Positions 5,824 through 59,471 of a stretch of 64,000 nt of DNA are shown here, one piece after another; within the stretch, counting starts at the first letter, position 1, and the number at the start of each line of letters is the position of its first letter. The translations under genes and the position numbers were made by a program. The stretch covers positions 192,001 through 256,000 of the forward strand of contig CAVVUN010000012.1 in NCBI GenBank assembly GCA_963751455.1, in the 5' to 3' direction. The notes under the pieces are model-generated. The model made no database searches. It was not told where the DNA came from and saw nothing but the letters and a program-made list of their open reading frames with translations. Source of the DNA: Nitrospirota bacterium (GTDB lineage Bacteria > Nitrospirota > UBA9217).

Positions 5824-8109
5824 TCAATCGACGATGAGCGTCGTGGTGCCTCCGAAAGAACCTTTCATCCTGGCCGTAATGTCTACAGTCCCCGGGCTCA
5901 CGCCTTTCGCAAGTCCCTTGTTCTTTGGTGGTTTATTTACGATCGTAGCGACAGCCGTGTTTGATGAAGACCAGGTAAGAGCTGTGGACCTGGAAAGGTC
6001 CCGTGTCGATCCATCTGAATAGTTCCCGGTCGCGGTGAACAGCAGGGTCGTCCCGGCTTTCAGGGTCTGATTCGCCGGCGTTACGTCGATGCTCATCAGC
6101 GCGGCCGAGGATACGGTGACCGCGGTCGATCCCGTTACGCTCGTCCCGGCGAATGCAGCGCTGATCATGGTCGTGCCTACTGTGAGGGGCGTCACGAGTC
6201 CCCGGGAGCCGTACGCATTGCTCACGGCTGCCACGGACTTGTTCGCCGGCTTCCACGCCACCTGGAAGGTAAGGTCCTGGGTGAATCCGTCGGAGAAACT
6301 TCCTGTTGCCGTGTACTGCACGGGTGCGCCGATTGCGAGACTCGCATCGGCCGGCGTAATGGTAATGGAGTCCAGAGTAGCCGCCGTGACAATGAGCGTC
6401 GCGGTGTTTGTCAGCTGCCCCAGCGCGGCAGTGATGGTGGTCGTGCCGGCGCCGATTGAGGTCGCCAGCCCTTTACTCGCGTCCGCGTTGCTTATGGCCG
6501 CGACGGAGCTGTTCGATGAGCTCCAGACCACCGACGCGGTGATGTCCTGTGTCGTATTGTCGCTGAACGTTCCGGTCGCAATGAACTGTTCCGCGGTTCC
6601 GAGCGCGACCTGGGCCGCGACCGGTGATATGCTGATGGATGTCAGCGACGCCGGGCTGACGGTAAGTGTCGATGATCCCGGCACACCATCGAACCACGCG
6701 GTAATGGTCGTTGTGCCCGGCGCAACGGGTACGGCAAGTCCGTTGGAGCCCGCTGCGTTGCTGACCCCCGCAACCCCCGTGTTCGTTGAGTTCCAGGTGA
6801 CCAGCGGCGTCAGGTCCTGAACGGATCCATCGGAGTAGACACCGTTCGCGGAGAACTGGAGAACAAGGTCGACCGGGATGGTCGGATCAGTCGGTGTAAC
6901 CTCGATCGAGACCAGCGACAGCGCGCTCACCGTGAGCTCCGTGCCGCCTGATATGTTGGCGAGCGTCGCCGTGATCGTGGCCGCTCCGGCCCCGACTGAG
7001 CCGGCAAGTCCCTCGGACCCCGGCGCGTTGCTGACCGTTGCAACCGTGGTTGATGAAGAACCCCAGAGGGCTGCCGCGGTCAGATCCCGGGTAGTGTTGT
7101 CCGAGTAGGTGCCGATAGCCGTGAACTGCTGCGCTGTTCCGAGGGCGATCCCCGTTTCGGCCGGCGTTACGTCGATCGAGACAAGCGTTGCGGTGGTCAC
7201 GGTCAGCGTGGTGCTGCCGGAGATTGACCCTGCCGTTGCCGTGATCACGGCCGAGCCCGCGGCTACGGAGGCGGCGAGCCCATGGGAGCCGGCGCTATCG
7301 CTTACCACCGCAACTGCGGTATCCGATGAGGTCCAGGTAACGGACGAGGTCAGATCCTGGGTAGTGTTGTCCGAGAAGGTGCCGATAGCAGTGAACTGCT
7401 GCGATGTTTCGCAAGCGATCCCCGGTGCTGTCGGCGTTACGTCGATCGAGACAAGCGTTGCGGTGGTCACGGTCAGCGTGGCGCTGCCGGAGATTGACCC
7501 TGCCGTTGCCGTGATCACGGCCGAGCCCGCGGCTGCGGAGGCGGCGAGCCCACGGGAGCCGGCGCTATTGCTTACCACGGCAACCGCGGTATCCGATGAG
7601 GTCCAGGTAACGGACGAGGTCAGGTCCTGGGTGGTGCGGTCGGAATAAATCCCGGTTGCAGTGAATTGCCTTGTTGTGGTGAGCGCGATCCTCGGCGCTT
7701 GCGACGTTACTTCTATCGATACGAGCGTAGCGGTCGTCACGGTCAGCGTGGCGCTGCCGGAGATTGACTCCGTCGTTGCCGTGATCACGGCCGAGCCCGC
7801 GGCTACGGAGGCGGCGAGCCCATTGGAGCCGGCGCTATTGCTTACCACGGCAACTGCCATATCCGATGAGGTCCAGGTAACGGACGAGGTCAGGTCCTGC
7901 GTGGTGTTGTCGGAATAAATCCCCGTTGCAGTGAACTGCCTGGTTGTGTTGAAAGCGATCCTCGGCGCTGTCGGGGTTACTTCTATCGAGACAAGGGATA
8001 CTGCTCCTGCGGTAATGCTTGCGCCGCCCTTTGACTTACATCCGAACGCAAAACTCAAGATGATTGCTGCACATATCAGGCCGTAAAAGCTCATGCTGCA
8101 TTTTCTCAT
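5824..8109 (-). CDS. Ig-like (Big_2) repeat surface lipoprotein, Lig-like adhesin
   Basis: AFGC lipobox; about 8 repeats of SI(E/D)VTP..QFTATG.YSD.TTQDLT..VTW.SS. Confidence 0.9.
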   Translation of the reverse strand: MRKCSMSFYGLICAAIILSFAFGCKSKGGASITAGAVSLVSIEVTPTAPRIAFNTTRQFTATGIYSDNTTQDLTSSVTWTSSDMAVAVVSNSAGSNGLAASVAAGSAVITATTESISGSATLTVTTATLVSIEVTSQAPRIALTTTRQFTATGIYSDRTTQDLTSSVTWTSSDTAVAVVSNSAGSRGLAASAAAGSAVITATAGSISGSATLTVTTATLVSIDVTPTAPGIACETSQQFTAIGTFSDNTTQDLTSSVTWTSSDTAVAVVSDSAGSHGLAASVAAGSAVITATAGSISGSTTLTVTTATLVSIDVTPAETGIALGTAQQFTAIGTYSDNTTRDLTAAALWGSSSTTVATVSNAPGSEGLAGSVGAGAATITATLANISGGTELTVSALSLVSIEVTPTDPTIPVDLVLQFSANGVYSDGSVQDLTPLVTWNSTNTGVAGVSNAAGSNGLAVPVAPGTTTITAWFDGVPGSSTLTVSPASLTSISISPVAAQVALGTAEQFIATGTFSDNTTQDITASVVWSSSNSSVAAISNADASKGLATSIGAGTTTITAALGQLTNTATLIVTAATLDSITITPADASLAIGAPVQYTATGSFSDGFTQDLTFQVAWKPANKSVAAVSNAYGSRGLVTPLTVGTTMISAAFAGTSVTGSTAVTVSSAALMSIDVTPANQTLKAGTTLLFTATGNYSDGSTRDLSRSTALTWSSSNTAVATIVNKPPKNKGLAKGVSPGTVDITARMKGSFGGTTTLIVD
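7100..7990. repeat. Near-identical 270-bp tandem units inside the Big_2 gene
   Basis: e.g. GTCGATCGAGACAAGCGTTGCGGTGGTCACGGTCAGCGTGG at 7171 and 7441. Confidence 0.85.
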
Positions 8110-8503
8110 GGTGGACCCTCCGTTTGATTTATTGGGTTTGGATGATAAGGCTCAATACATAAAGTCAAAGTGCAATCTAAAGGTACCTATTTTCCGTATC
8201 GGGAAGCAAAGTGAAGAGGATATTTTTAAGACAATAGCCTGATTTGTTCTTTAATTCCTTGGTATAGATATATTGTAATATCATAAAATAGTTTTGTCAT
8301 ATTTCTACGAAGAAGAACGCAATAAAAAAAGCATGCGATTAACTGGTGAAAGGAAAGCGAACAATAAATAGCGATTGTTGTGAGGAATTAGTTCGATATG
8401 TGGGTCTTATCTTGCCCTTATGGTCTTTCAGGGAGAAGGATAGGTGAAGTTACCGCGGACACAACGGAGAGAAACTAAAATGGTAACTACTCAGGTCATT
8501 TTT

Positions 8504-8591
8504 TATCCGCAGATTACGCAGATTTCGCAGATAAAAACAAAACCAGAATTCCGGTTTTAGAATCTGCGTCAATCTGCGAAATCTGCGGATA
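8504..8591. repeat. REP/MITE-like palindrome of (CGCAGAT)x3 ... (ATCTGCG)x3
   Basis: TATCCGCAGATTACGCAGATTTCGCAGAT ... ATCTGCGTCAATCTGCGAAATCTGCGGATA. Confidence 0.75.
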
Positions 8592-8686
8592 GAAGGGCTT
8601 TTTCTTAGATTTGTCTTAATGCTGTTCTGAAAAGAAGCTGAATAGTTACCTAAAATGGTACCTTTCAAGATTACTGCATGTTCCAT

Positions 8687-8721
8687 AAAAAAACCGCCAG
8701 GGTTAATCCCGGCGGTTTTTT
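8687..8721. terminator. Bidirectional terminator downstream of the htrA-like gene
   Basis: AAAAAAACCGCCAGGG-TTAAT-CCCGGCGGTTTTTT. Confidence 0.7.
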
Positions 8722-8774
8722 CTTTCATTTCATTTCGATACGCCCCTTTTCGTTCCAGTCCAGGGCAAGTCAAT

Positions 8775-9833
8775 TCAGGACACGATGCCCCGGATCTGTT
8801 TTTCATCGGGTACGATATTGAGGTGCAGCTTTTCCACACCCCGGAGAGCAACCATGGGATAGGTGACGCCGACCTTCTCCTCGGTCAGGATCCTGTGCAG
8901 CTCGTCAATGCCCGGGACCGGCGTCCCCCCGAAGCCCACGATGATGTCCCCTTTTCGCAGGCCTGCCCGCATGGCCGGGCTGTCCGGTTCGATCGCTTCG
9001 ATCATTACCCCTGTTTCAAGGGGAAGACCATGGAAACGTACGACGCGGCGCGGAAGCTGTATGTTCTGACCGCCCAGCCCGATAAAGCTGCGACGCACCC
9101 TCCCGTATTTCATCAGGCTCGTAACAACGAATTTGGCTGTATTGATGCTGATCGCGAAACAGATCCCCTGGGCGGGCGTGATCGCCGCGGTGTTCACCCC
9201 GATGACTTCCCCGCGGGACGTGACCAGTGGTCCGCCCGAATTTCCCGGATTGAGCGCTGCATCAGTCTGGATCACGCTGTCGATCAGCCTGCCGGAGAAT
9301 GAGCGCAGGGAACGGCCGAGCGCGCTCACCACACCCGCGGTCACGGTATATTGAAAACCAAAGGGATTGCCGATCGCGATAACAAGCTGACCGACGCGGA
9401 CTGACTGTGAATCTCCCAGGCGCGCAGCAGCAAGGTTCGAAGCATCGATCCTGATTACGGCAAGGTCCGTTCCCGGATCGTCCCCCACCTTGTCCGCGCG
9501 AAAACGACGTCCGTCCAGAAGGCTCACCTCGATCCGCTCAGCCCCATGCATCACATGGCTGTTGGTAAGAATGAAGCCGTCGGGCGTAAAAATGAAGCCC
9601 GATCCGCTTGACTGCAGCTCCCCGGGACCCTGCGGCGCGTGGCTGTTGCTTCGCACCGGCTTCCATACCTCTATGTTTACGACCGAAGGGCTCACCTTAT
9701 CTGCTGCGCCCACCACGGCCCGGGAATATGCATCCATCACCTCTTTTTCACTGTCCGGCAGCGACTGGACCGAAGACTGGTCAAAGCTCACAGAGTCATT
9801 CAAAAGTTTTTCAATCACGCTTTTCATATTCAA
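8775..9833 (-). CDS. HtrA/DegP-like trypsin serine protease with one PDZ domain
   Basis: GSGFI..ILTNSHV (His), DLAVIRI (Asp), TDAALNPGNSGGPL (Ser), C-terminal PDZ (SPAMRAGLRKGDII). Confidence 0.92.
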   Translation of the reverse strand: MNMKSVIEKLLNDSVSFDQSSVQSLPDSEKEVMDAYSRAVVGAADKVSPSVVNIEVWKPVRSNSHAPQGPGELQSSGSGFIFTPDGFILTNSHVMHGAERIEVSLLDGRRFRADKVGDDPGTDLAVIRIDASNLAAARLGDSQSVRVGQLVIAIGNPFGFQYTVTAGVVSALGRSLRSFSGRLIDSVIQTDAALNPGNSGGPLVTSRGEVIGVNTAAITPAQGICFAISINTAKFVVTSLMKYGRVRRSFIGLGGQNIQLPRRVVRFHGLPLETGVMIEAIEPDSPAMRAGLRKGDIIVGFGGTPVPGIDELHRILTEEKVGVTYPMVALRGVEKLHLNIVPDEKQIRGIVS

Positions 9834-11356: not shown

Positions 11357-12520
11357 ATGAAAAAAAGCCCGCGCGACTTTCTTCAGAAAGCCTGGATGAC
11401 CCTGTCCGAGGCATCTTCATTCTTCCGGCGGAACAACGACCTGACCGCCTCCTCCTCGCTCGCTTTCTCGGCCACCCTTGCGCTCATCCCCGCCCTGTTC
11501 CTGCTTACGTTCCTGCTCGGCGCAATCGTCGGATCGTCCGCCCGGGCGCTCGCGCAAACGCGTGAGTTCATTACCCAGCTGATTCCCGCGTACAGCCAGG
11601 TGATCCTGAAAGAAGTGGACTTTATCGCCCGCCATAAGCGGGCCATCGGCATGCTGAACCTGTTCGTATTGTTCTGGAGCATTACTCCGCTGGTCGCCGA
11701 TATGCGGGTCTCCGTGGGCGCAATCTTCCGGAAAAGACCGACCAGGCCCTTTCTTCTTGAGAAGCTCTTCGACGCCGCCATCAGCATGGTCTTCCTGGTG
11801 GGGCTCGCTGCGGTTGCCGTCGCTGGCGTGGCGTTCACGATCATAAAACGGATCCAGCCGCTGCGGCAGATGCCCGGCAGCCTCAACGATGTTGCCTTCT
11901 TCGTAGTGGTCATTGGCGTTATCTGCGCCCTCTACTTCACCTTCTCGAAGCGCGCACGGTTCTTCCATCTGCTCGCGGGTGCTCTTGCTGCCTCCCTGCT
12001 GTGGTTTGCGCTCCGCCCGGCCTTTCACCTGTTTCTCACTTTTAACCCGGGTTATGGGTTCGCTTTTGGTTCGTTCAAATCGCTGTTCGTCATCTTCATC
12101 TGGATCTACATCTCGATGGCCCTGTTTCTGTTCGGCGCCGAGATCGCGGCAAGCCTCGGGAGGAACGAGTCGGCCAGCCTCAAGGGTCTTCCGGAAGACA
12201 GCACTGTTCCCCCCGGCGTTCTTTATCGCCGCATTGTCCGTTTCGAAAAAGGGAGCGTTGTTTTCAAGGAGGGGGATCCCGGAAGCGGGATGTTCTGTGT
12301 GCTCAAGGGGAGCGTATCAATCCGCAAAGGCGGGACGGAGATCGAGGTGGTTCCTCAAGGCAAGAGCTTTGGCAGCGTGTCATCCGTCCCGCCGTCTGTT
12401 CATCACGTGACCGCCCTGGCGCTCGAGGACCTGGAGCTGGAACATCTTCAGGGCCAAGTCTTTTTCGTTGCATCATCATCTGTGATGACACAGGAAGCAA
12501 TTTCAAGGAATAAGACTTGA
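11357..12520 (+). CDS. YihY/BrkB family membrane protein with a C-terminal cNMP-binding domain truncated by a mini-element
   Basis: ASSLAFS..LALIP, FGSFKSLFVIFIWIY..LFLFGAEIAA; VVFKEGDPGSGMFCVLKGSVSI; last codons derive from the element at 12450; TATAAT at 11328. Confidence 0.8.
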   Translation: MKKSPRDFLQKAWMTLSEASSFFRRNNDLTASSSLAFSATLALIPALFLLTFLLGAIVGSSARALAQTREFITQLIPAYSQVILKEVDFIARHKRAIGMLNLFVLFWSITPLVADMRVSVGAIFRKRPTRPFLLEKLFDAAISMVFLVGLAAVAVAGVAFTIIKRIQPLRQMPGSLNDVAFFVVVIGVICALYFTFSKRARFFHLLAGALAASLLWFALRPAFHLFLTFNPGYGFAFGSFKSLFVIFIWIYISMALFLFGAEIAASLGRNESASLKGLPEDSTVPPGVLYRRIVRFEKGSVVFKEGDPGSGMFCVLKGSVSIRKGGTEIEVVPQGKSFGSVSSVPPSVHHVTALALEDLELEHLQGQVFFVASSSVMTQEAISRNKT

Positions 12521-12526
12521 CACCCC
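12450..12526. mobile_element. ~75-bp TIR mini-element, copy 1
   Basis: AGGGCCAAGTCTT ... AAGACTTGACACCCC; internal sequence shared with 21392-21466 and 23164-23238. Confidence 0.8.
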
Positions 12527-14753: not shown

Positions 14754-17700
14754 TTAGTGTTCCAAAACAATTCGAATAGTTCTTAGTAGCTCTTCCATTT
14801 TAAATGGTTTCTGTAAAAAGTGAGAACAGTACTGCTTCCAAAGGATTTTGTCATGTTCAACATCATATGCACTCATTAGAATGATCTTTGCATTCTTGTT
14901 AACTTTCGAAATTCTCTGTGCTGTTTCAGGTCCACTAAGTTTCGGCATTAACATGTCCATAATGACAATATCTATATCCGTTGCTCGACTGTATTTTTCA
15001 AGTGCCTCTACGCCATCATACGCGGATACTATTTTATAGCCTAAATTAGACAAAGTAGCTACTATCATCTCATGCAATACGGCTTCATCTTCAACGACAA
15101 GAATTTTCTCTGATCCTGAAAGAGGTTGATTTATATCGACTTCAAGACTCTCTTTTGAAGACAATACTTGAGCTTTGGGAAAGTAAATCTGAAATGTAGT
15201 ACCCTTACTAAGTTCACTAATGACGTTGACGAAGCCGCCCAAACTTTTCATTATCCCATAGACTATAGATAAGCCCAATCCTGTGCCTTTACCGACATCC
15301 TTCGTTGTAAAAAAAGGTTCGAATATCTTTGATGAAACTGACCGATTCATTCCGATGCCTGTATCCGTTACGGATACCATTACGAAATCACCAGGCGGGA
15401 GGGTCGCTCCTTCGACAAGTGCGCTATTGAGCGATTTTAAATTATCCACCGCAATTTCAAACATGCCACCGTTCGGCATAGCATCACGAGCATTCACTGC
15501 CAGATTTAATAGCACTTGTTCAATTTGGGCAATGTCGCCATTTATTGGCCATATATCATCACCCAAATCAGTCTTGATTTTAATAGTTTCAGGGAACACA
15601 CGCGTCAAAAGCTCCATTAACGAGTCGATTATATCTGGAAGATTGACGGTAGTCTGCTCAATACCTCCCCGGTCGAGAGCGCCTTTCCTTGCAAACGCAA
15701 GGAGACTACGTACTAAATTACTTGCACGATCTGTTGTTTCGCTCACCCGCTCAAATATTTGTTTTAAATCTCCTATCTGATCACCAGCGACTTTACTTAA
15801 CGCTAGTGACGTATAACCTGAGATTGTCACAATCAAATTTGAGAAGTCATGTGCAATCCCCCCTGCAAGTTGCCCAACCGCTTCCATCTTTTGAGCTTGA
15901 AGTAGTTGACGTTCCAAATTACGAACTTGATTTTCCTTCTCTTCTCCATACATAATGCTTTTCTCGATTAACTCTTCGTCTGCTCGGCTAAACTTAACTT
16001 GTTGAGCATAATGTAATTTTAGGAAACGAGCTCTTTCGAGTGGAATTAATGTTCTGAGATTATTGCAAATACTTCGTTCATGCTCCATAACTTCAAGGAT
16101 TCGTCTAATCTCTCGCTCTTCATCAGAAATCCAATGATCTATTTGAGGAATCAAATAGTCATGAGTCAATTCGTAAGACGAACCCAGTTGGCCTTGCACA
16201 ACTCTAACGAGACGTTGATATACTAATATGTCGAGAACTGCTTTTATTTGCTCGACCGTAGACATTGGTTCAAGTTGAATTAATAGAGAATCCAAATTGA
16301 GATGTTTTCTTAAACTATCAGGGCTGACGAAACATTTGAGGATTTCACGGGCTACGTCTCTATCAGTATGTCTGAAACTGCTGAGAACATATCCAATGTA
16401 ACTGGATAACAATTTCTCTGCACCACCAAGATCCTTATAAACACCTATGTCGATCTTTTTACACTCGACTGGTAGGGCCTTGAATACAGCAGTGCAGACT
16501 ATCTGAAGCTGAGTCGGCTCGACTCCTTCACGGTCGAGATCAGTTATTACTCCATGAACAAATGAGTCATCACATTGAAGCCCCACAGATTGAGCGGGGC
16601 GTCGGATTGCTACCTCCGCGGAGGATGATTTCAGCGAAGTCAAATGATAGCGATTGTTGAAAACATCAGGGATTATATGAGTTAAGTCGTTTAGACGAAC
16701 GAAATAATCTTCACGAACGGAAAGAAGAACGTGACATTGCACCATTTCATGGTTAATGATTGTTTTTAAAAATTCGCAGATTGGATCAAATGAAGATTGT
16801 TCAAAATCTTTGAACATTTGTTCGACTTGATCAAGCAATAGTACAAATGATTTGCGAGAAAGACGAACTTTATCCAATAAAATATTTGCTGCTTCTTTTG
16901 GCACCGCTACCAACCTATCCAGTGACGTGCTTAGTAATTTGTCACATTCTACAAGAATAGATTCCAATTTTGGATCAGTAAGGCGGCAATAAATAACAGT
17001 ATAGTCGCGGTCAAGGAGTTGGGGAAATACACCTGCTTTAAGTAAAGACGTTTTTCCTACTCCTGACTGCCCAAACAATATTAATAGTTTATGTGCAAGA
17101 AGAGATTGAAGGATAGAAACTGTTTCCTCTTCGCGACCGAAAAAAAGATCCTTATCTTGTACATCGTAATAGTCCAAGAATTTGTAAGGGCATGGATGAA
17201 TAACCGGGGTTTCTGAAGTAGTTGATGTATGTCTTCTCCCTTTTAGGGTATTAACCTCTTTAATCAGCTTTAGTAAAAGTGCCTGTAACTCAGCATAATG
17301 ATTTTTAGATTCGTAAGGAAGTATGGTTATATTATATTTATCTTTGAATAATTTAGGGAGAATTTTCCCGGCGTTTGGAACGAGAGCAAAATGTCTTCTT
17401 CCGAAACCTTTAAAAACTGATACCTGCTCATTTAATATTAAATTCAAATCGGGATCACGAAGCCCATATCCAATAAAAACAAGGGTCTTCATAGTAAAGT
17501 AAGCTGAAAGAGCAGTGCGATATGCAGGATGATGAATAATATCTTGATAGTCGCGATGTGTGAGGATGATTGTATCCACATCATCAACATGACCATGCAT
17601 TTTTAAAATGAAAAATTTCTTGTCGCTTGTCAGTCGTGCAAGTTGTGCAATATTTTTTTGAGTGTAAACTGGGGGAATACCGTTATCCCTGTTTTTCACA

Positions 17701-18077
17701 AAAACCTGCTCCAACAATGTATCATAGTTTGTAGTTAAAATTGCGCTAAAAGGCAGCTGATAAAGCAATTGATGTGTCGCATTTGGTTTTAAAGTTACCG
17801 ATTGAAAGATTCTTTGAATAAAATCTCTGTAGAGAGATTTACCAAGACGTGAACTGCATTCATCCGCCACTTCTGAGAATAAACCATCTTTTAATAGTTC
17901 TCGGAGTTCATCTCCTTCCTGAAATTGAAAAATGTTTTGCTCGCATTCTTTTATTAGTAGCTCAAGAAGTTCCTTCCAAGTGGGTAGGCCCGACGCAACA
18001 GACAGCCCCGAGCCGACCACTGCTACAGCCTCGCCTGAAAACAGAGCATCTAATAAATCTTTAGGAAAGCTTTGCAC
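14754..18077 (-). CDS. SIR2-like domain + nSTAND1-type NTPase + hybrid histidine kinase-receiver fusion
   Basis: VVGSGLS..LPTW, TTNYD, KMHG, FIGYGLRD (SIR2_2); CPYKFL..FFGRE, GQSGVGKTS, LDQVE, SVREDY, YELTHDYL (nSTAND1); AGGIAHDFSN, NLAVNARDAM, DTGIGM, FFTTK, GTGLGL (kinase); VVEDE, MDMLMP, QKPF (receiver). Confidence 0.9.
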   Translation of the reverse strand: MQSFPKDLLDALFSGEAVAVVGSGLSVASGLPTWKELLELLIKECEQNIFQFQEGDELRELLKDGLFSEVADECSSRLGKSLYRDFIQRIFQSVTLKPNATHQLLYQLPFSAILTTNYDTLLEQVFVKNRDNGIPPVYTQKNIAQLARLTSDKKFFILKMHGHVDDVDTIILTHRDYQDIIHHPAYRTALSAYFTMKTLVFIGYGLRDPDLNLILNEQVSVFKGFGRRHFALVPNAGKILPKLFKDKYNITILPYESKNHYAELQALLLKLIKEVNTLKGRRHTSTTSETPVIHPCPYKFLDYYDVQDKDLFFGREEETVSILQSLLAHKLLILFGQSGVGKTSLLKAGVFPQLLDRDYTVIYCRLTDPKLESILVECDKLLSTSLDRLVAVPKEAANILLDKVRLSRKSFVLLLDQVEQMFKDFEQSSFDPICEFLKTIINHEMVQCHVLLSVREDYFVRLNDLTHIIPDVFNNRYHLTSLKSSSAEVAIRRPAQSVGLQCDDSFVHGVITDLDREGVEPTQLQIVCTAVFKALPVECKKIDIGVYKDLGGAEKLLSSYIGYVLSSFRHTDRDVAREILKCFVSPDSLRKHLNLDSLLIQLEPMSTVEQIKAVLDILVYQRLVRVVQGQLGSSYELTHDYLIPQIDHWISDEEREIRRILEVMEHERSICNNLRTLIPLERARFLKLHYAQQVKFSRADEELIEKSIMYGEEKENQVRNLERQLLQAQKMEAVGQLAGGIAHDFSNLIVTISGYTSLALSKVAGDQIGDLKQIFERVSETTDRASNLVRSLLAFARKGALDRGGIEQTTVNLPDIIDSLMELLTRVFPETIKIKTDLGDDIWPINGDIAQIEQVLLNLAVNARDAMPNGGMFEIAVDNLKSLNSALVEGATLPPGDFVMVSVTDTGIGMNRSVSSKIFEPFFTTKDVGKGTGLGLSIVYGIMKSLGGFVNVISELSKGTTFQIYFPKAQVLSSKESLEVDINQPLSGSEKILVVEDEAVLHEMIVATLSNLGYKIVSAYDGVEALEKYSRATDIDIVIMDMLMPKLSGPETAQRISKVNKNAKIILMSAYDVEHDKILWKQYCSHFLQKPFKMEELLRTIRIVLEH

Positions 18078-18234
18078 TTTTTGGCCTCAAATTAAAAGGT
18101 AATTCACTTTGTCATGTGGGGTCAAATCATATGACAAGTATTATTGTATGGGAGGTTTTGGCGGATGGGATAACTTCTCAATGTTGTTCTCCCGAGACTT
18201 TGCGCAGGCTAAAGGCGGTTCTCCTGATGAGGCG

Positions 18235-18458: not shown

Positions 18459-19178
18459 TCAAATGTTCGCTTGTAAGGTAATGAAATCTTCATCCAAATT
18501 TAATTTGTTCCTAAATTGCTTAACTCGGTTGGGCATGCCCGACAAATCTGAAAAAGTATCGATAAACTGGATTGCTGTCTCAACACCCCACTTGGCACAA
18601 GAATAACTCATGCATTTCATAGAAATTAAGTGTGCACCTTCATCGGCAAAAGGGCTACACTTAAATCTTGAAAGTATATCCTTTAATTCAATTCGTTTAT
18701 CTTCAGGCTCAAAATCCCAGTTTGGCTTAAAATGAGTTAATTCGTTTCTTATTATTATCAGACAATTGGCATCCTTATAAACCTGCTCCTTCTCAAAATC
18801 GTTATTAATATTCATAATGTTCAACGCCTTAAGATATTTTTTTAGAAGTGGCATAGCTTCTATTCCATTCCGGCCCCAGAATTTTTTATCGTAATTCTCA
18901 GTCTTTCCTCTTAACAGGCCGCCATGGTCAATGAATAATTCATTTATGTTAGCTTCGAGTGCAGCGGTAGATGCCATTATGGAAGCGCTTGCGTATGATC
19001 TAATCTCAGTAAAAAACTCACCGAATGGCTGTCCCAAGTTCTCGTGCTCAATTACTCCCACTCTGCGAGCAAAGAGCACTGCCGATATTAAGTGTTGTAA
19101 GATGAAGCTGCTGATAGAACGGCCATGAGCTTCTACTTTGAGCATCGGACGCACTGAATTAATATTCATTTTTTCCAT
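18459..19178 (-). CDS. Hypothetical protein with a HEPN-like R-x4-H motif
   Basis: All-helical-looking 239 aa; AALEANINE early Glu and IRNELTH motif; AT-rich. Confidence 0.55.
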   Translation of the reverse strand: MEKMNINSVRPMLKVEAHGRSISSFILQHLISAVLFARRVGVIEHENLGQPFGEFFTEIRSYASASIMASTAALEANINELFIDHGGLLRGKTENYDKKFWGRNGIEAMPLLKKYLKALNIMNINNDFEKEQVYKDANCLIIIRNELTHFKPNWDFEPEDKRIELKDILSRFKCSPFADEGAHLISMKCMSYSCAKWGVETAIQFIDTFSDLSGMPNRVKQFRNKLNLDEDFITLQANI

Positions 19179-19247
19179 TTGATCCTTGCGTTGTAACGAA
19201 GGGCGACAACTTTCGTTGATACGCGAAATGCTTTCCCCTTTTTCGCT

Positions 19248-19988
19248 TTACTGCACCTGCGGCGAAGCAGGCTGGATAACTTCATCTTTCGGTTTTGGCT
19301 TTGCTTTTCTTTTTCTCGTGATCTTTACATCACCGATATCTTCCCAGGTTTCCTTAGAGATCATCTTCCTGATGTTATCCACCAATTCCTGCTCATCCAC
19401 TCTGATGCCGTGACTATTTTTTAAGCACGCCCGAATTACTTTTAACGTACTTTCATGAAATACGGCACGGACGATACTCCTTGGCGAAAGAGTTTTTACT
19501 TTTTCATAAAATTGTTCTATCTCTCCCTTCAGAACGCTTTTCCTATGCAGGATTCCCAGTACCTGTGCAGCCTCTTTAATATCGCACTCTTTAAGATCGA
19601 CTGACAGAACGAGATCACTCTGTATCCCTTCATCAAAACTTAAATGGTAAAGCTGCCAATAAATACCGTTCGTTAATAAGACCCATGGAACTCCTGAATT
19701 GGCTGCATAGTTTTCTGCTTGTTCTATATGTTTTTCTTTCAAAGCTATTCCGGCTTGCTTAATTTCAATGAAAAATTTCACTTTCCCGTTAAGCTTGATC
19801 GCATAGTCTACATTTCTTTCCTTAACGACATGCTCTCTCGATATTTCAGTAAACACATCGTAACCCAAAACATCTTCGAAAAATTTATTAATACGTGTTG
19901 AGGTCTCCGCTTCATTAATGCCTTGATCGTGCGCTTGTTGAAAGATCGGCAGAAATTTTTTCAAGTCCTTCAAAATATCGATAGGCAT
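19248..19988 (-). CDS. Type I restriction HsdR N-terminal-like (PD-(D/E)xK) endonuclease
   Basis: INEAET, VLGYD, VDYAI..FIEIK, QAENYA, LLTNGIYW. Confidence 0.8.
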   Translation of the reverse strand: MPIDILKDLKKFLPIFQQAHDQGINEAETSTRINKFFEDVLGYDVFTEISREHVVKERNVDYAIKLNGKVKFFIEIKQAGIALKEKHIEQAENYAANSGVPWVLLTNGIYWQLYHLSFDEGIQSDLVLSVDLKECDIKEAAQVLGILHRKSVLKGEIEQFYEKVKTLSPRSIVRAVFHESTLKVIRACLKNSHGIRVDEQELVDNIRKMISKETWEDIGDVKITRKRKAKPKPKDEVIQPASPQVQ

Positions 19989-20110
19989 TAGAATACCCCC
20001 TGGTAAAGAAAATTTATTTCTTGTAATCGCAGCAAGTTTGGTAAATTGGTCCTACTCCTACGCGCAATGATCACGCGGGCCTCGCATATTACCTGTACCG
20101 CCAGCCCAAG

Positions 20111-20827
20111 TTACGGTGTCGTTTTTTCTCTCTCTTCTCTCAGAGTCTGCTGCATGGCGCTTGCTACCAAGCCTGCTGGAATGGCAATTACTCCTATTCC
20201 GACAATGAGAACCACGAAAGTAAATATTCTTCCGCCTGCGGTTACGGGATACGCGTCGCCGTAGCCTACTGTTGTTAGTGTTACTACAGCCCACCACATA
20301 CTATGGAAAATCGACTTAAATGCTTCTGGTTGAGCTTCTCGCTCGAAATAATAAATGCCCATTGATGCAAAAAAAATCAGAAATACACAGGCAATGATGA
20401 AAATAATTAACTCTTCTCGTATCATCCCTAAAGCCCGGCCGAATCGTTTAATAGCTTTGCTGTAGCGGAACAACTTTAACAAGCGGAACATTCTAAAAAG
20501 CCGGAGAACGCGAATGGATCGAAGATCAACCCCGGCCGTTACATAGAAAGGAAGCACGGCCAGCAAATCAACCATTCCGTAGAAACTGAAGATGAATCGG
20601 AGTTTCTGCCTGGTCACATAGATGCGAAGCAGGTATTCGATAGAGAAAATTATGACTGTAATTAATTCGAGGTACGCGAGAACTTTACGCGTTGTGGCAG
20701 TAAGATCAGGAAGCGTTTCAATGCAGAAGGAAATGAGCGAGACAATGATGAGCGCCTGTATAAAGAAGGCGAAAGCACGCCCGGCCTTCGTATCGCTCTC
20801 TTCGATTATTTGTCGGAGGTTCATCAC
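20111..20827 (-). CDS. Voltage-gated potassium channel / ion transporter
   Basis: S4 RSIRVLRLFRMFRLLKLFR; pore WWAVVTLTTVGYGD. Confidence 0.92.
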   Translation of the reverse strand: MMNLRQIIEESDTKAGRAFAFFIQALIIVSLISFCIETLPDLTATTRKVLAYLELITVIIFSIEYLLRIYVTRQKLRFIFSFYGMVDLLAVLPFYVTAGVDLRSIRVLRLFRMFRLLKLFRYSKAIKRFGRALGMIREELIIFIIACVFLIFFASMGIYYFEREAQPEAFKSIFHSMWWAVVTLTTVGYGDAYPVTAGGRIFTFVVLIVGIGVIAIPAGLVASAMQQTLREEREKTTP

Positions 20828-21371: not shown

Positions 21372-21391
21372 AGCATCTTCAGAGCATCTTC

Positions 21392-21466
21392 AGGGTCAAG
21401 TCTTTTTCGTTGCATCATCATCGTTGATGACACCGGAGTCGATTTCAAGGAGAAAGACTTGACCCT
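21392..21466. mobile_element. ~75-bp TIR mini-element, copy 2 (perfect 14-bp TIR)
   Basis: AGGGTCAAGTCTTT ... AAAGACTTGACCCT. Confidence 0.85.
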
Positions 21467-22986: not shown

Positions 22987-23153
22987 GGAGATCGCGGCGA
23001 GCCTCGGTAAGAACGAGTCGGCCAGCCTCAAGATCCTTCCGGAAGACAATACTGCTCCGCCCGGAGTTCCCGATCGCCGCATTGTCCGTTTCGAAAAAGG
23101 AAGCGTTGTTTTCAAGGAGGGGGATCCCGGAAGCGGGATGTTCTGTGTGCTCA
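22987..23153 (+). pseudogene. Internal fragment copy of the yihY-cNMP gene between two TIR motifs
   Basis: Matches 12140-12305; preceded by AGGGTCAGGTCTACTTTGATG (22966-22986), followed by the mini-element at 23164. Confidence 0.8.
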
Positions 23154-23163
23154 GAACATCTTC

Positions 23164-23238
23164 AGGGCCAAGTCTTTTTCGTTGCATCATCATCTGTGAT
23201 GACACCGGAGTCGATTTCAAAGAGAAACACTTGACCCT
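23164..23238. mobile_element. ~75-bp TIR mini-element, copy 3
   Basis: AGGGCCAAGTCTTT ... AAACACTTGACCCT. Confidence 0.8.
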
Positions 23239-26732: not shown

Positions 26733-26839
26733 AGCTTCTCACCCTGAGAATCGAGCTCCCTGCAACTTATGAAAAGTCAAACATTATAGACCCTGCTGTT
26801 CTTGCGGCACAAGATGCTGTTGTTGTTATTGAAGCGCCC

Positions 26840-28345
26840 TTACCCCGCCGGCTGAGGCACCGATCCTGAGTAAAACGGCGCGCACTTTTCCCGCTGAATG
26901 AATTTCCTCGCGCTCTTGAGGGCGTTTGACATTGGCCCGGTAATTGACTTAAGCGCGCTTGCCTCGATCTCCGGCTTGAGCAATGGTCCATGCACTTTCT
27001 GCCTGTACACAGCGCACCCCCGCTTATCAAGCACTGCTACGGATGTGTCAATAAGCCGGTCGTTGACGAGATTCAATCCTCCCCTCATGGCGATCCTGTG
27101 CTTGTTTGAAGCAAGGGCCACATCCGACGCTTCCGCAATGCCGTGATCGACTTTCCAGATTGCAACGAGTTTTTTGATGCTCCCTTCTCCGCCTCGTGAC
27201 TCTTCGTGATACAGACGTCCGAAATTATAGCTCTTGGTGAGCAACGGTCCGAACGGGCCCGCAAGTAAGAACGCCCCGGCGTCCACAAGGTTGAAGTTCT
27301 GGCAGCGCTTGAATTTTGAGACAAGGGCATCGATATTGGCGCCGGAGAACGTAACATTTTCGCCTTTCAGGGAAACGTCGCCGCTGAGCGACCGTTTCAT
27401 CTCATCCATGCTCTTCCCCTTTGCAGTCAGGTTCGCGGAAAAGTCCGTCAGCCCTTCTATGGTTTTTGCAGGGATGTTTTTGGGCGAGAATTCCCGGATA
27501 AGGTCTGCGATTCTGAACCGGCTGAGAGCACAGAACACCCGGTAACGAGGGGCTGCACCCGTCGCGTCCAGGTGCAAGCTCCCTTTCCCGCTCCCCCCGA
27601 AAACGTTCATCCTGGCCCGTTCGATATCGAACATTCCCCTTCTTCCTGTTATTTTCATCGCGATGTTCGATACGGCGAGGTTGTTGCTCTTGACTGTCCT
27701 GCACCTGATATCCCCGGTGAATGAAATGTTCCTGAGCAGCTCCGCTGAATCCGACCCGCTGTATGAAACGTTTCGGAGGGTCAGATCAAGGCGTTCCGCT
27801 TCAATCTTTTCTCCGGATAACTTATCTGTAAAAACAAGCGTCCCCTGAAAGATGGACGACGCCGGTATCGAAAGCGGTTTTTCCGACGGCGCCGGCCCTG
27901 GTTTGTCAAAATTGAACGTTCCGTTCCGGTAACGGACTACGGACATGGCCGGCCTCACGAACTCGACCCGTCGTATCCGGACTTCGCCCCGCGCAAGGGG
28001 AATGAGTTCCAGGCCGATCGTCATCTTCTCAATAGTGGCGACATTGGTTCCCTTGTTTCGGACGCTGACGTCCTCCATCGATATCGCGAACCCGGGAGTA
28101 AAAACGATGCCCATCCTGCCGTTGATCCGGACATCCATTCCCGCAGCCTGCGAGGCAGCTGCTTCGACCTGCGGTTTAAAGGTTTTGATTTCGAGCAGGA
28201 GAGCCGCGATGATCGCTGCAACAAGGACGATTACGATCGTTGCTATAAATATTTTTTTTTCTTCTGTACTATCATTTTTCACATTCGTCGAACTTGACAA
28301 CGTAAATTTTGATTTGACGTTGGAATGGGTAGCGAGAGGGCGCAA
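26840..28345 (-). CDS. AsmA family protein, copy 1 (start region differs by 1 nt from copy 2)
   Basis: AsmA-like N-anchor and LSGDVSLKGEN..NLVDAGA region; near-identical to 57684-59120. Confidence 0.75.
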   Translation of the reverse strand: MRPLATHSNVKSKFTLSSSTNVKNDSTEEKKIFIATIVIVLVAAIIAALLLEIKTFKPQVEAAASQAAGMDVRINGRMGIVFTPGFAISMEDVSVRNKGTNVATIEKMTIGLELIPLARGEVRIRRVEFVRPAMSVVRYRNGTFNFDKPGPAPSEKPLSIPASSIFQGTLVFTDKLSGEKIEAERLDLTLRNVSYSGSDSAELLRNISFTGDIRCRTVKSNNLAVSNIAMKITGRRGMFDIERARMNVFGGSGKGSLHLDATGAAPRYRVFCALSRFRIADLIREFSPKNIPAKTIEGLTDFSANLTAKGKSMDEMKRSLSGDVSLKGENVTFSGANIDALVSKFKRCQNFNLVDAGAFLLAGPFGPLLTKSYNFGRLYHEESRGGEGSIKKLVAIWKVDHGIAEASDVALASNKHRIAMRGGLNLVNDRLIDTSVAVLDKRGCAVYRQKVHGPLLKPEIEASALKSITGPMSNALKSARKFIQREKCAPFYSGSVPQPAG

Positions 28346-28448
28346 TGCGGATCTCCTGCAAAACTGCAGTTGATGTTATTTTACGGGAGGGTTGGGGAAA
28401 AGTATGTGATTTCGATTACGGAGGTCGATGATATTTTTCCGGGGAACC

Positions 28449-30376: not shown

Positions 30377-33300
30377 CTAGGTGTCCTGATGGAGGGAAGA
30401 ATAGATCTCTTGCGTGCGCCTGGAAGGTTCGAGCCCCAGCGCATCACGCAGGGCGGAACGGCAGCGTTGGTAGGTTTTGGCGGCTTCGGCCCGGTTACCC
30501 AGCTTGTCATGGCAGATCATGAGATGCTGATAGAACTCCTCGGATGCCGCGTCTTTCTCGAGCCCGAGCTCGAAACAATCGACAGCTCTTTTCCATTCGC
30601 CGTCATGCTCATACTGTTCGCCCGCTTTCGTTATGAGCCGGAGAAACTTGCTTCGCAGACGCTCGCGCGTGACTGCGCTCCAGGGATGGCGGGTGTCAGC
30701 AGGAAGGAAATTACCTTTGTAGATCGTCATGGCCCTTTCGAGCCGCTGCAGCGCTGCAGATTTATCTGCTTTGCTTTTTTCGTCATCACTCTGCATTGCC
30801 GTTTCAAACGCCCGGACATCCACCCAGCATTGCCTGAGATCCAGGCTGACCTGGCCGTTATGAAGAAGAACGACACTATCGCGCCCGATCAACTTCCGTA
30901 AACGCTGGAGTGCCATCTCAAACGACTTATGCGCCAGGTCCCCGGTTGCTTCAGGCCAGAGCTCGTCAACGATCCTCTCCTCACTCACATCCGCCCCCCC
31001 GAACGCGATCAGCACCTTGAGGAGGTCCAGGGGCTTTTTCTGCACCTTGCCTGAAAACTCCACGGTCTTGTCGTCGACAAGCAGTTTGAATCCGCCAAGG
31101 GTCAATATTTTTATTGGCCACGGCCAATTGTCGAGATGGAGCGGAGGGTCGTCGGGGACGAAGTTATAGGTACGGATCATTTTTTTCACATGTTCAATCT
31201 CGATATCCGACTCCAGCGCTCTCAAGCAGAGGCCGTACATGCGAGGGACGGGCGGCCACTCGAAACTGAAAACATATCCTTTTTCCCTGCCGAGAGCCAG
31301 ACCGTCTTTCAATAACGCCGTTCCTTTTTCCTGATTGCCGTCTTCAAATAAATAAGAGGCTTCGGTCAACAAACAGATAAATTCAAGAAAACCGCTTTTT
31401 ATCCCACGGGCTATCCGGTAACTCTCAGCCAGATGCTCTTCCGCCTTTTCCTTCTTACGCGCTGAGCGCAGGACCAGCGAAAGCGTACAATGACTGATGG
31501 CCTCCGGGTACCATAAGCCCATGGCCACTGCAATCGAATGCGCTTCCTGAAAATGAATTGCCGCCGCAGAAAGCTGCTTGGTTAATACAAATCTCCTTGC
31601 GAGCTGCCGATGATAATAATACCTGTCAAAAGGACGCGCCCGGTCAATCGTTGTTCTGAATTTTTCAATCATTGCTTCGGCGTTCGCGTTGTCGTTCCTG
31701 TCCATACATGCACCTATCCCCATGACCAGGAGCATATGATCCCACATGTGGACGCCGCTGTCGTTCGCCTTGTTCAGCCCCTCCAATACCGTCTCATACG
31801 AATCGCGCAAAGAACCGCTTGCACGCGAGAGCCAGCCGTCCGACATGCTGACGAGAATGTCGGCAAGAGGAGACAGCCCTTTCGTCGAATCCGCAATGCG
31901 TCTCATGATTTCGACTACGTGGTCCGCCTCGATAAATTCTCCCGTCCAGATATCAAAAGAAAGAAGATAGAAAGCTGTTATTATCCTCAAGCTGCTGTCT
32001 CCTTTGCCTTTCACGATTGCAAGCGCTTTTTCCTTCGCTGCAGGAAGCTTCGGATGATGCGGCTGCCTTAAGGCAAGAGCAAAAAACAGCGAGGAGGAAA
32101 CCCGGGCTTCGATTTCAGGACTGGGAAAAGAATAGGCAGTCTCAAGATCATCGAGAATGGAAATCCACGGGTCAAGTTGTCTTAAATCTCCAAGCTCATG
32201 GATAAGCGATTCAACGATGCCTGACCAGGAAAGATAAATTCCTGCCGTCTCGTTTCTGTCCCTGAATGAAGTGAATGACCTTTCAAATAAATCCTTTCCC
32301 TCGCTGAGATCGAAGGGCATCCGGCACACACCCATCCAGTATTGAAGCCATGGCTCCTGTTGAATGATGTCGGGAGGGAGATATTTCAACCACTGGTCAA
32401 GCAGTTGGAGCCTGCCTTGCGATATGACAGGTTTAGCCTTCGAAAGGATCAGCCCGATGAGACTTTTCCAGTCTTCAGATAATCGGTAAAGCTCAACCGC
32501 ATCTTCGATCTGACCTGATCTTTCGAGAAGCACGCCGGCCCGCCGCATGATAACAAGGAGTTCGTCATGCGGATAAACTTCCCGGGACCTGGACTGAAGG
32601 TATTCCCGGAAGAGAGGGTGATACCGAAAATGGACCTCGGATATGCCGTGCTTTTCGGTAAAAAAGTTATTGCGGCTCAAGCGCGCAAGGATTTGTCCGG
32701 CGCGCTCATTGCCGGTGAGTTCTTCGGCGTTGTGCACCGTCATGTTCGGCAGGAAAGAGCTTATGAGGAGAAATTCGCGGATTTCACCATTCAGGTTGTT
32801 CAGGATTTCTCCGGCAAAATACGCAAAAATATTTTCATGCGAAAAGTCTCCCTTGGGCTGCACAATATTGGAGCCGGTTTTCGATCCGCTGGTCATCAGC
32901 ACCAAACCCGCGGCCCAGCCCTGCGCCTTTTCGTATATCCCTTTAACCGCAGCCTGAGGGATTTTCTTGTTTTTTATTTGCAGCATGGCGCGCGCTTCAC
33001 GGTCAGTAAATCGAAGTTCGTCCCAATCAAGGGTTTCCATGCCGCTCTTTGCAGAGAGATCGGATAGTTGCACAGGAGGCGAGGTTCTGCTGAGGACCAT
33101 AACATTGAATTCGTCCGGAATATTCGACATCCCGTGCTTGATCATTTCGTGAAAGGGCGATGTTTCCGCTACATCCTGGTAGTTGTCGAAGACCAGGATA
33201 AAGCCGTCAGGGGTTCCCCGTGATGCGGACGAGGCAGCGAGCTTCAGCCTGCGTGCAGTTGAGAAGTGAGACGATGATAGGCCGAGAAACAATTCCTCGA

Positions 33301-33642
33301 AATATCTTCTCGTAAACGTCGGAATGCCGAGGCGGTATTCAGGCGTCAGGAGGGGCAGAGGTTTTTTGAATCGGGACGCGGCCTTCTTTGCCGCAAGGCC
33401 CATATAGTAGAAAAAAGTAGCGATGTCTGCATCGCCTTCGTCAAGACGATACCATAAGCAGGGAAGCTTCCGGGCATCAAGGTAGCTCGCAACGAGGGTT
33501 GTCTTCCCCGAGCCCCCGGGTCCTGAAATCCAGGTTACCGGCGCTTTTCGACTGAGGTCGAGCAGATGAAAAAGCCGGGAGCGCTCAAGGACATCCGATA
33601 TCCGGGGACGTGTTATCTTGGTAATGGCAGTTTTGTTCAGCA
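30377..33642 (-). CDS. MalT-like STAND ATPase with TPR region and C-terminal BTAD (SARP) domain
   Basis: KITRP..RSRL, GPGGSGKTTL, GWAAGL, FRYHPLFREYL, ILTLGGF..DELWP..WVDVRAF..LGLEPS; start uncertain (up to 33760). Confidence 0.9.
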
Positions 33643-33865
33643 TGCTATAGCGCATCGACCGGGATAGTTCTTTCCCCAGTGCATTATCAGCGTGAAGAAA
33701 GGCAAACGCAAAATCTTGGTGGGAATTCCAGAGAAAGGGGAAATATAAACGCTTCGACAAGCACCTTCATTATATCACTTAATCCGCGTCTTGCAAGAAA
33801 CATATTGCGGGGGGGCGGGATTGCGTGCGATTTGTATTTCGATACTTTAATTCGACGCCGGTCAA

Positions 33866-56596: not shown

Positions 56597-57683
56597 GGGA
56601 AAGTTAAAGCAGACGTGAGACGACAATTAGTCGACCAAGAAGCGACACACTGCACTCCCGCTAGTGCAGTCGTAACCGACTGGGTTGCAGGCGAGGTGAT
56701 GGGGTGACGCCGAGCGTTACGAATGCACCTTCGCCACCTGGTGAGTTCCCTTCGGCAGGAGCCGGTGCCTTCCTTTGCAAGTCGCGGGATTCAATCCGGC
56801 TAAGCCGCACGCCGTATTGGGCTTAATTTCTTTTTGACCTCTCTTGCCGAGCACTTTGTCTTCGATCGGCTTTTTCCATCCGGACCCGGATGAGAGTCTT
56901 TGTCGCTCAGGCAACGAACATGGCCAAAGGAACGTAACGTAGTACTGCGGAATTGATTTTCATAAGTTTGACCTCCTGGCGCATTTCCCGGCGCCTTATG
57001 CTTCTGAATTTAGCGCTCATCGGAGGCGAGTCAATTGACCCAATGTATTAGCCGGCCGTGGGCTTTTGACCCGACGAAAGACAAGGAGGATAAGCCAACA
57101 GATTTTCGCCGCGTGCATCTTCTGAGGAGATCCGCCAGCAGCTGAATACGCCCTATAATGCGACCTCCCCGCGACTGACCCCTTCCCCGTCCAAAGCCGG
57201 GATCATATGTCGCAGCGGGATTGGGTCACTTTCTTGCCCTGACGCAGGTTTTAGCGTCGCTTAGGGTTCTCGCGCCCAGCGGGTGCGAGAGCGCAGGATG
57301 GCACGCAAGAAAGGCGACAAAAAGAGCTGTGAAGAATGAGAAATGCAAAAAGTTCCACTCATTATGGAGAAGAGCCAAAAGAAAAGATCTCGAACATCAA
57401 GGCATGAAGTTCAGCCTGTATTCGCGCTTTGGCTCATGTTCACTGGCCGCAAGCAAGATCCTTATCTTTTTCGCACCAGCCGCTCGCAGCACCACCCAGA
57501 CATGCCAAAGACTCAGAACCCGATTGTCTGCGGACTCCTCGGACACGCGATTACATCGCTGATATTCTGCATATCCAGATACTGGATATCGGGGTCGGGC
57601 CACGCTAAACTACTGGTTTTCAAAAATTTATCATTCCAATAATAGGCATTTTCTTAAAGATTCTCCCTTCAATTGAAGCGCCC

Positions 57684-59120: not shown

Positions 59121-59471
59121 TTTTCACATTCGTCGAACTTGACAACGTAAATTTTGATTTGACGTTGGAATGGGTAGCGAGAGGGCGCAATGCGGACCTC
59201 CTGCAAAACTGCAGTTGATGTTATTTTACGGGCGGGTTAGGGGAAAGTATGTGATTTTGATTACGGAGGTCGCTGATATTTTTCCGGGAACAGGTGGTTG
59301 AGATAAAAGGGCTCATAGGACATAATGACATTCCGGACACGACATCCCAAAGTTCCCCATGGCGGGAATAGTTACGGACAGGATTTTGTCGGGGGTCAGC
59401 GTAACCTTCCCCCGATCCTGTCCGCCTCGAAGTTTTCTCACGCTGCATGGACGATTCTTCTCAGTGATCGG

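Follow-up and report, generated by a model that had tools for sequence, protein, structure and literature searches.

The stretch of DNA analyzed here, to which we refer as the window, comprises 64,000 nucleotides from a Nitrospirota bacterium (GTDB lineage UBA9217; contig CAVVUN010000012.1 of assembly GCA_963751455.1, positions 192,001 to 256,000), and it encodes a protein in which a SIR2 domain, an nSTAND1 NTPase module, a histidine kinase and a receiver domain are joined in a single chain. The open reading frame (ORF) and the parts into which its product can be divided are as follows, with positions in the protein given in amino acids (aa):

14754..18077, (-) strand: SIR2-nSTAND1-linker-histidine kinase-receiver gene, 1107 aa, GTG start (ORF call)
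17238..18077, (-) strand: SIR2 domain, a predicted NAD+-cleaving enzyme (NADase) of the ThsA/DSR type, aa 1-280; Pfam SIR2_2 at aa 112-252; N117, D119, H161
16104..17189, (-) strand: nSTAND1 NTPase module, aa 297-658; Pfam E 6e-44; Walker A K342, Walker B D416/E419
15924..16127, (-) strand: STAND-derived helical linker, aa 651-718, by profile match; colinear in P0128 and retained in most STAND-less relatives
15681..15923, (-) strand: coiled coil plus HisKA/DHp, aa 719-799; Pfam HisKA at aa 735-799; phospho-His H743; helix in the model
15171..15539, (-) strand: HATPase_c kinase domain, CckA-like, aa 847-969; Pfam, and fold match to CckA 5idj/5idm
14775..15104, (-) strand: receiver domain, aa 992-1101; Pfam Response_reg; D1041, K1090

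An earlier note on this DNA had read these modules and their motifs from the sequence, and the profile searches agree with it: five Pfam domains, each above its cut-off, follow one another in the order SIR2_2-nSTAND1-HisKA-HATPase_c-Response_reg. The NTPase scores 151.6 bits as nSTAND1 against a cut-off of 27.1, as compared with 21.8 bits as nSTAND3, which is under the cut-off of 27.2. The H, N, G1, F and G2 boxes of the kinase (H743/N747/N862/D905) and the Asp and Lys of the receiver (E996/D997/D1041/S1069/K1090) are all found, and the protein has the residues that NAD+ cleavage, nucleotide binding, autophosphorylation and phospho-acceptance would call for. The catalytic His of the SIR2 domain is probably correctly assigned, judging from the names of mutants in the PDB. 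No transmembrane helix is evident, as had been noticed before (top 19-residue hydropathy 1.39). A role for the SIR2 Asn is backed by the N141A mutant of EfAvs5 (PMC11897194).

The nearest relatives of the SIR2 domain with solved structures are, by sequence, the defence NADases ThsA, KomC and DSR2, and its fold matches SeThsA with Z 22.2 over 254 aligned residues (root-mean-square deviation, rmsd, 3.0). The SIR2-STAND part aligns with the AVAST5 filament chain 9nc9 (Z 17.8, 446 aligned, rmsd 20.8), a whole-chain Foldseek search returns almost solely kinases, and an Atlas search with aa 1-809 gave no usable match. The AlphaFold2 model of the protein, built from 13 sequences, has a mean predicted local distance difference score (pLDDT) of 75 and a predicted TM-score (pTM) of 0.39; it does not resolve the packing of the domains, and it contains a single helix from aa 698 to 762 that passes through H743.

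That the kinase stands in the place of a sensor, as the earlier note had supposed, can be seen by comparison with a sister protein. Amino acids 3-713 of the window protein (P0001) align colinearly with P0128, which consists of SIR2, nSTAND1 and FGE-sulfatase, as far as the point where the helical linker ends (30% identity, E 8e-85), and the kinase therefore begins where the sensor region of the sister begins; no match to TPR, WD40, HEAT or FGE-sulfatase domains is found in the window protein at E<=0.01. A profile made from five STAND-less linkers detects the linker of the window protein at E 2e-21, and a wider family profile detects the post-STAND helix of nSTAND1 proteins that have no kinase, partly via the shared end of the STAND. 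By these alignments we take the family linker to be STAND-derived. In 17 of 18 direct fusions the linker lies 36 residues from the phospho-His, a regularity that we do not count as separate evidence of coupling, as recombination within the conserved H-box region would by default leave the spacing unchanged.

The gene is not an artifact of chimeric assembly, since a search with aa 1-730 finds four full-length homologues on other contigs (P0003-P0006) that have the same five domains at 46-51% identity. Further members were sought with a kinase-free alignment against loci, clusters and a 50%-identity library; the scans of the collections covered 30 and 27 of 64 parts, so that the family counts given here are lower bounds. 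At least 28 family SIR2 domains form one clade (SH-aLRT 100), although its members were gathered by similarity and the clade is therefore partly built in. All 28 retain the catalytic Asn and His, and every sufficiently complete member of the clade bears a kinase. Where source labels are given they name Nitrospirae, Acidobacteriota, Ignavibacteriota and a Hodarchaeales archaeon. The family is nonetheless rare: the gene was found in none of 60 relatives and in one of 400 other genomes of the phylum. Further genome samples, in which two to three candidates per genome were scored at E<=1e-60, gave matches in 0 of 401, 2 of 401 and 1 of 301 genomes, and the two of these three that were inspected (all but L203) are nSTAND1 proteins without a kinase. 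There was no family-level match in viral contigs (32 loci, with distant SIR2 only) or in phage records (one weak STAND match), and none of 66 matching plasmid records at 80% coverage.

The STAND module, to which the earlier note had assigned a central role, is absent from 18 of the 25 members whose architecture can be scored, and such a role is unsupported. At least eight members bear it, namely the five whole proteins, L085 (receiver in another frame), P0124 (N-terminus cut) and P0122/P0008, presumed from the equal length of their contigs to be two halves of one gene; at least 18 are STAND-less and at least three are fragments. The STANDs of the family form one clade (SH-aLRT 100). The label of STAND presence or absence changes five times on the SIR2 tree, where the STAND-less P0333 is sister to the STAND-bearing P0006 with a support of 99. 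Most STAND-less members retain the linker, from which deletion of the NTPase rather than its insertion may be inferred. The STAND has thus probably been lost repeatedly, leaving SIR2-linker-kinase proteins, and the constant core of the family is the SIR2 domain plus the kinase. Other parts vary as well: L168 and P0348 have no receiver, and the kinase motifs have drifted in P0347 and P0348. Broken or split copies (L085, L168, P0122/P0008 and P0366) may reflect errors of metagenome assembly.

The kinase is the part of these proteins that appears to have been exchanged. Identity to the window protein is 47-66% for full-length SIR2 domains, 43-60% for the STAND, 37-45% for the kinase and 26-45% for the receiver, and in each of the 10 pairs compared, conservation is lower in the kinase part than in SIR2. 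The best 119 non-self matches to the kinase-receiver module of the window are ordinary kinases at 37-46% identity, and none of these 119 has a SIR2 domain. When 16 family modules were placed in a tree with 35 selected ordinary modules, monophyly of the family kinase-receivers cost 292 log units and was rejected (approximately unbiased test, p 2.35e-6). In a bootstrap analysis with 22 modules from the family and 21 ordinary ones, the tree requires eight changes, at least three of them forced by starred branches, and 0% of the bootstrap trees have one family clade. The ordinary modules in these trees came from matches to the window protein, best matches only, and from its own genome, and the model was LG+G4 with no mixture. 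Individual modules show this most plainly: that of P0008 shares 71% identity with an ordinary kinase, as compared with 40% for the module of the window protein, while the SIR2 domain of P0122, its presumed N-terminal half, is 66% identical to the window SIR2; the modules of P0004 and P0333 are 55-57% identical to ordinary kinases. As far as such comparisons can tell, the kinase-receiver modules have probably been replaced several times.

Flanking DNA is available for five members, the window protein included. The homologue L005 (the same as P0005) lies in an element of ~19.9 kb (L005:5848-18169 and L205:1-9180); the homologue comes after a tRNA-Pro and an integrase that is in two frames, and the gene immediately following it encodes a Drt8-like reverse transcriptase (E 2e-117), itself followed by a Toprim-AAA_25 gene; the element is closed by a 47-bp repeat of the tRNA-Pro end. 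The architecture search that the earlier note had proposed thus yields homologues sharing the architecture and, with L005, one clear defence context. In L086 the gene adjoins a D12 adenine methylase on the other strand at the end of the locus. L168 has cstA on one side and PilZ/TfoX genes on the other, none of them a defence gene; its reading frame breaks after SIR2 and it has no receiver. On L085, a contig of 5 kb, a PilZ gene is the only neighbour. By profile, no other receiver gene is present in the 64-kb window, the L005 element, L085, L086 or L168 (Hpt genes were not searched with a profile), whereas that profile detects 141 frames with a receiver in the window genome.

In four of these five contexts the family gene is richer in AT than its surroundings. 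The window gene has a GC content of 0.392, as compared with 0.514 for its genome, and a third-position GC (GC3) of 0.323, which is lower in just 0.3% of 787 long frames. The earlier statement that the gene is AT-richer than its flanks is correct for the left flank only, as positions 18459-20827 on the upstream side are likewise AT-rich (0.414) and extend the low-GC stretch across three genes, of which one may be HEPN-like, one has an HSDR_N domain and one encodes a channel. The features that can be named on this side are:

18108..18138, strand not assigned: hairpin with a 12-bp stem that holds GGGGTCAAATC; unsupported as a candidate element end
18459..19178, (-) strand: upstream neighbour, 239 aa, RxxxxH motif, HEPN-like candidate; nearest named Atlas clusters YopA_C 0.93 and HEPN_RiboL-PSP 0.82
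19248..19988, (-) strand: upstream neighbour, 246 aa, with a restriction-enzyme-like HSDR_N domain; Pfam HSDR_N_2 E 2e-8, PADLOC type IIG REase E 2e-10

These two neighbours may be called defence-like. The 239-aa neighbour has no Pfam match, and its RxxxxH, which we presume to be a HEPN-like motif, is a lead. The sequences TGTCCCC and GGGGTCAAATC, said earlier to bound the gene, were rejected as element ends since their genome counts are at chance level (489 copies against 698 expected under uniform composition, and 7 against 2.7), and there is no tRNA gene in the window. Elsewhere in the window there are another large regulator-like gene (30377-33760), whose 1127-aa product has TPR and BTAD domains; a near-identical duplicate of an AsmA-family gene region (26828-28443 and 57672-59288, ~30.8 kb apart); and dispersed palindromic intergenic repeats (12140-12305 with 22988-23153 and, among others, 12437-12524, 21379-21466 and 23151-23238).

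The family is one branch of a wider SIR2-nSTAND1 clan, for which 80 of 138 new matching proteins were scanned with Pfam. Most of the sisters scanned carry HEAT, TPR, WD40, FGE-sulfatase or no recognized domain after the STAND. A few distant sisters have host-type domains in this slot: Hsp70 in P0351 (54% identity with a gene of the window genome across 497 aa) and P0386, an FtsK motor in P0443 (39%), TatC in P0359 and NUDIX in P0331; P0449 is a SIR2-DnaA fusion (47%) with intact SIR2 motifs. We regard P0351, P0386, P0443, P0359 and P0449, as a lead, as candidates for integrated-decoy sensors. P0334 is a SIR2-nSTAND1 protein with a kinase and P0456 one with a HATPase, both outside the family clade, and the capture of a kinase by SIR2-nSTAND1 proteins has thus probably taken place more than once; within its STAND, P0456 further contains an EAD7 domain. 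Many sister proteins have lost SIR2 catalytic residues. In a large SIR2-nSTAND1-FGE-sulfatase/HEAT group (P0015-P0024, P0128-P0132 and many others) the SIR2 Asn or His is often replaced, which suggests from sequence an inactive SIR2. Guanylate/adenylate cyclase-SIR2-nSTAND1(-TPR) architectures occur in P0343, P0382, P0399, P0406, P0407 and P0450, and L006:426-5939 encodes a 1837-aa SIR2-NACHT-like-HEAT protein with a histone deacetylase domain at its end (E 2e-62). Stand-alone SIR2 genes of ~285 aa related to the window SIR2 lie in L007, L009, L010, L012-L019, L021 and L022 (about 7980-8870).

The window protein can be compared with several known systems. Avs5, in which phage triggers filament formation and NAD+ depletion, shares the N-terminal SIR2, the central STAND, a C-terminal domain in the sensor position, the SIR2 Asn and Walker motifs and the fold match to 9nc9, but it has an nSTAND3 and a short sensor (PMC11897194) where the window protein has an nSTAND1 and a 390-aa kinase-receiver, and most family members are without STAND. 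The nSTAND1 conflict proteins, built as effector-NTPase-sensor, likewise have an nSTAND1 with Walker A/B motifs; the window protein differs from them in having no C-terminal repeat or FGS sensor. Detocs also ties His-Asp phosphotransfer parts to a metabolite-depleting defence effector, but it consists of three genes (DtcA kinase, DtcB receiver and DtcC receiver-effector), with a TPR-bearing kinase and an effector C-terminal to the receiver, in 80% a PNP (10.1101/2023.01.24.525353); in the window protein a single chain holds all parts, the SIR2 is N-terminal, and neither a TPR nor a buffer receiver is present. The STAND-less majority form resembles Dsr1/DSR2 and ThsA in being a SIR2 with a C-terminal module, although the similarity is limited to SIR2 and the sensors of those proteins are not kinases; Avs7 and Dsr1 share a sensor with and without STAND (PMC12803255). 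The DHp-CA-receiver core is 37-46% identical to CckA-like hybrid kinases and matches them in fold, but the input is SIR2(-STAND) and not PAS, GAF or transmembrane, no partner genes lie nearby, and the scores of 363 and 280 bits are below the curated CckA orthology cut-offs of 1000. Ambrosia also uses a kinase-like ATPase and a receiver in phage defence, but in a five-gene operon like those of restriction-modification, with a receiver-winged helix-turn-helix (REC-wHTH) regulator and no SIR2 or STAND among the five genes (10.1101/2025.09.30.679545). A likeness can also be drawn to plant nucleotide-binding leucine-rich repeat receptors (NLRs) with integrated decoys, in that an immune STAND protein would guard a host function or show a copy of a host target, and that a host-type domain at the sensor end has probably been acquired repeatedly. 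Guard-type bNACHT25 uses DnaJ in trans, and bNACHT11 has merely been proposed to mimic a host partner (PMC12169576, PMC11702601), whereas in the window protein the host-type protein is fused into the slot.

The syntax of the window protein is thus like that of Avs5 or DSR and its His-Asp parts are like those of Detocs, but it lacks some defining features of each. In the literature, nSTAND1 is defined in PMC8195603, where receivers occur without kinases, the vWA-associated effectors described in PMC7159879 include no histidine kinases, and a kinase-Schlafen effector is known (10.64898/2026.10.19.760177). No description of a SIR2-kinase or SIR2-STAND-kinase fusion was found by full-text search of the accessible literature, including 10.1101/2022.07.19.500537, PMC9503650 and PMC11564622, although the supplements of PMC12803255 (589 STAND clades) might list it. 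The family is apparently an undescribed, rare variant of SIR2-STAND immunity with a captured, exchangeable hybrid kinase.

We think it reasonably probable that these proteins are abortive-infection NADases in which a captured host-type hybrid histidine kinase, in the sensor position, gates the SIR2 domain, a predicted NADase. We favor this because of the effector-STAND-sensor ancestry, the invariant SIR2 catalysis, a kinase in the sensor slot that is swapped like a sensor, the orphan status of the kinase and the one clear defence island. Before infection, the dimer formed by the kinase-receiver part would keep the SIR2 domains inactive by way of the unbroken helix that joins linker and DHp; a phage protein might then bind the kinase as bait, or infection might alter its ATP or phosphorylation state, whereupon the helix would shift and the SIR2 domains would assemble, aided by the STAND where there is one, and deplete NAD+. 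The NADase activity, the anti-phage function, the direction of the signal and the nature of the trigger are all matters that we infer. Since the STAND has probably been lost repeatedly, the DHp dimer may be able to serve in its stead as switch or scaffold. As to the trigger, we hold only tentatively, and with less than even confidence, to the kinase as bait for a phage protein; a gate responding to phosphorylation or ATP is possible and in our estimate somewhat unlikely. Both variants have precedent, because ATP inhibits the NADase of EfAvs5 (PMC11897194) and Detocs defence requires His-Asp transfer (10.1101/2023.01.24.525353). The bolder proposal that bacteria possess literal integrated-decoy NLRs, in which host proteins (hybrid kinases, DnaK, FtsK, TatC, DnaA) have been copied time and again into the sensor slot of SIR2-nSTAND1 proteins as phage bait, with the kinase dimer now serving as the switch and the STAND dispensable, seems doubtful to us.

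Several observations weigh against a gated NADase or against its bait variant. A domain N-terminal to the DHp helix is in the usual position of a kinase input, and the fixed 36-residue spacing fits signalling in either direction. The phospho-His is retained in 24 of 24 members and the G1 box in 23 of 23, which a pure decoy need not keep, and four members have PAS domains (one of them a PAS-like insert read by eye). The kinase of the window groups apart from those of its own genome, which leaves a recent capture from that source unsupported and weakens a recent host-mimic reading. The fusions to housekeeping domains are single clusters seen at the protein level, most with degenerate SIR2 motifs; one literature search showed no clear example of such kinases being the target of a phage protein; and the context is clearly defensive in only one of the five members.

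Some of these points would be expected if the SIR2 domain (with the STAND, where present) were the input, sensing NAD+, ADP-ribose or an infection signal, while the kinase passed phosphate to host regulators elsewhere. The N-terminal position with one predicted helix leading into the DHp, the fixed register, the mostly intact kinase and receiver motifs and the PAS-containing variants all suit such an arrangement; any of the 141 receiver-bearing frames in the genome could take the phosphate, swaps of the kinase could match it to host partners, and four contexts are without clear defence character. We nevertheless consider it unlikely, for no partner receiver gene lies near any of the five members with context, the kinase shows the lowest conservation of all parts (14 of 24 members have the canonical HDFNN H-box, as compared with 117 of 119 among ordinary kinases, in related sequences and with a control biased toward the consensus), the SIR2 retains catalytic and not just binding residues, and the ancestry is that of a conflict-type STAND protein, with a defensive DRT8 context. 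Of the two wirings considered in the earlier note, a kinase gating an NADase may accordingly be said to fit the sequences better than a STAND-driven phosphorelay, because the STAND is missing from 18 of 25 scoreable members and the partner receiver from all five contexts. The two activities might also be combined, infection turning on the NADase and sending a phospho-alarm to host signalling in a one-chain mixture of Avs5 and Detocs. The residues of both catalytic sets have been kept through some 35-65% divergence, and in Detocs the His-to-Asp transfer can be required for defence (10.1101/2023.01.24.525353); given the missing receivers of L168 and P0348, the drifted kinase motifs of P0347 and P0348 and the lack of an output regulator encoded nearby, we find this improbable. 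It is still less probable that the fusion is a transient, uncoupled and decaying product of domain shuffling. The extreme rarity of the family, its broken or split copies and the repeated STAND loss would agree with decay, but there are 24 kinase-bearing members with, where measured, 47-66% SIR2 identity to the window, the catalytic residues are invariant, the kinase is kept in every sufficiently complete member of the clade despite its swaps, a separate SIR2-nSTAND1-kinase fusion (P0334) exists outside the clade, and the breaks may be assembly errors.

If the SIR2 domain were the input after all, the protein would be a kinase that is informed of NAD+ metabolism by a sirtuin, and no description of such a kinase was found either. 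As a gated NADase it joins two branches of bacterial immunity, the SIR2-STAND NADases and phosphotransfer defence, in one chain, and the family provides a natural series of deletions and swaps (with and without STAND, PAS and receiver) for dissecting how the state of a kinase might gate an NADase. Should the kinase prove to be bait, the integrated-decoy principle of plants would extend to bacteria, the fused domains would amount to a list of host proteins that phages attack, and the swapped kinases would point to unknown phage inhibitors of two-component signalling.

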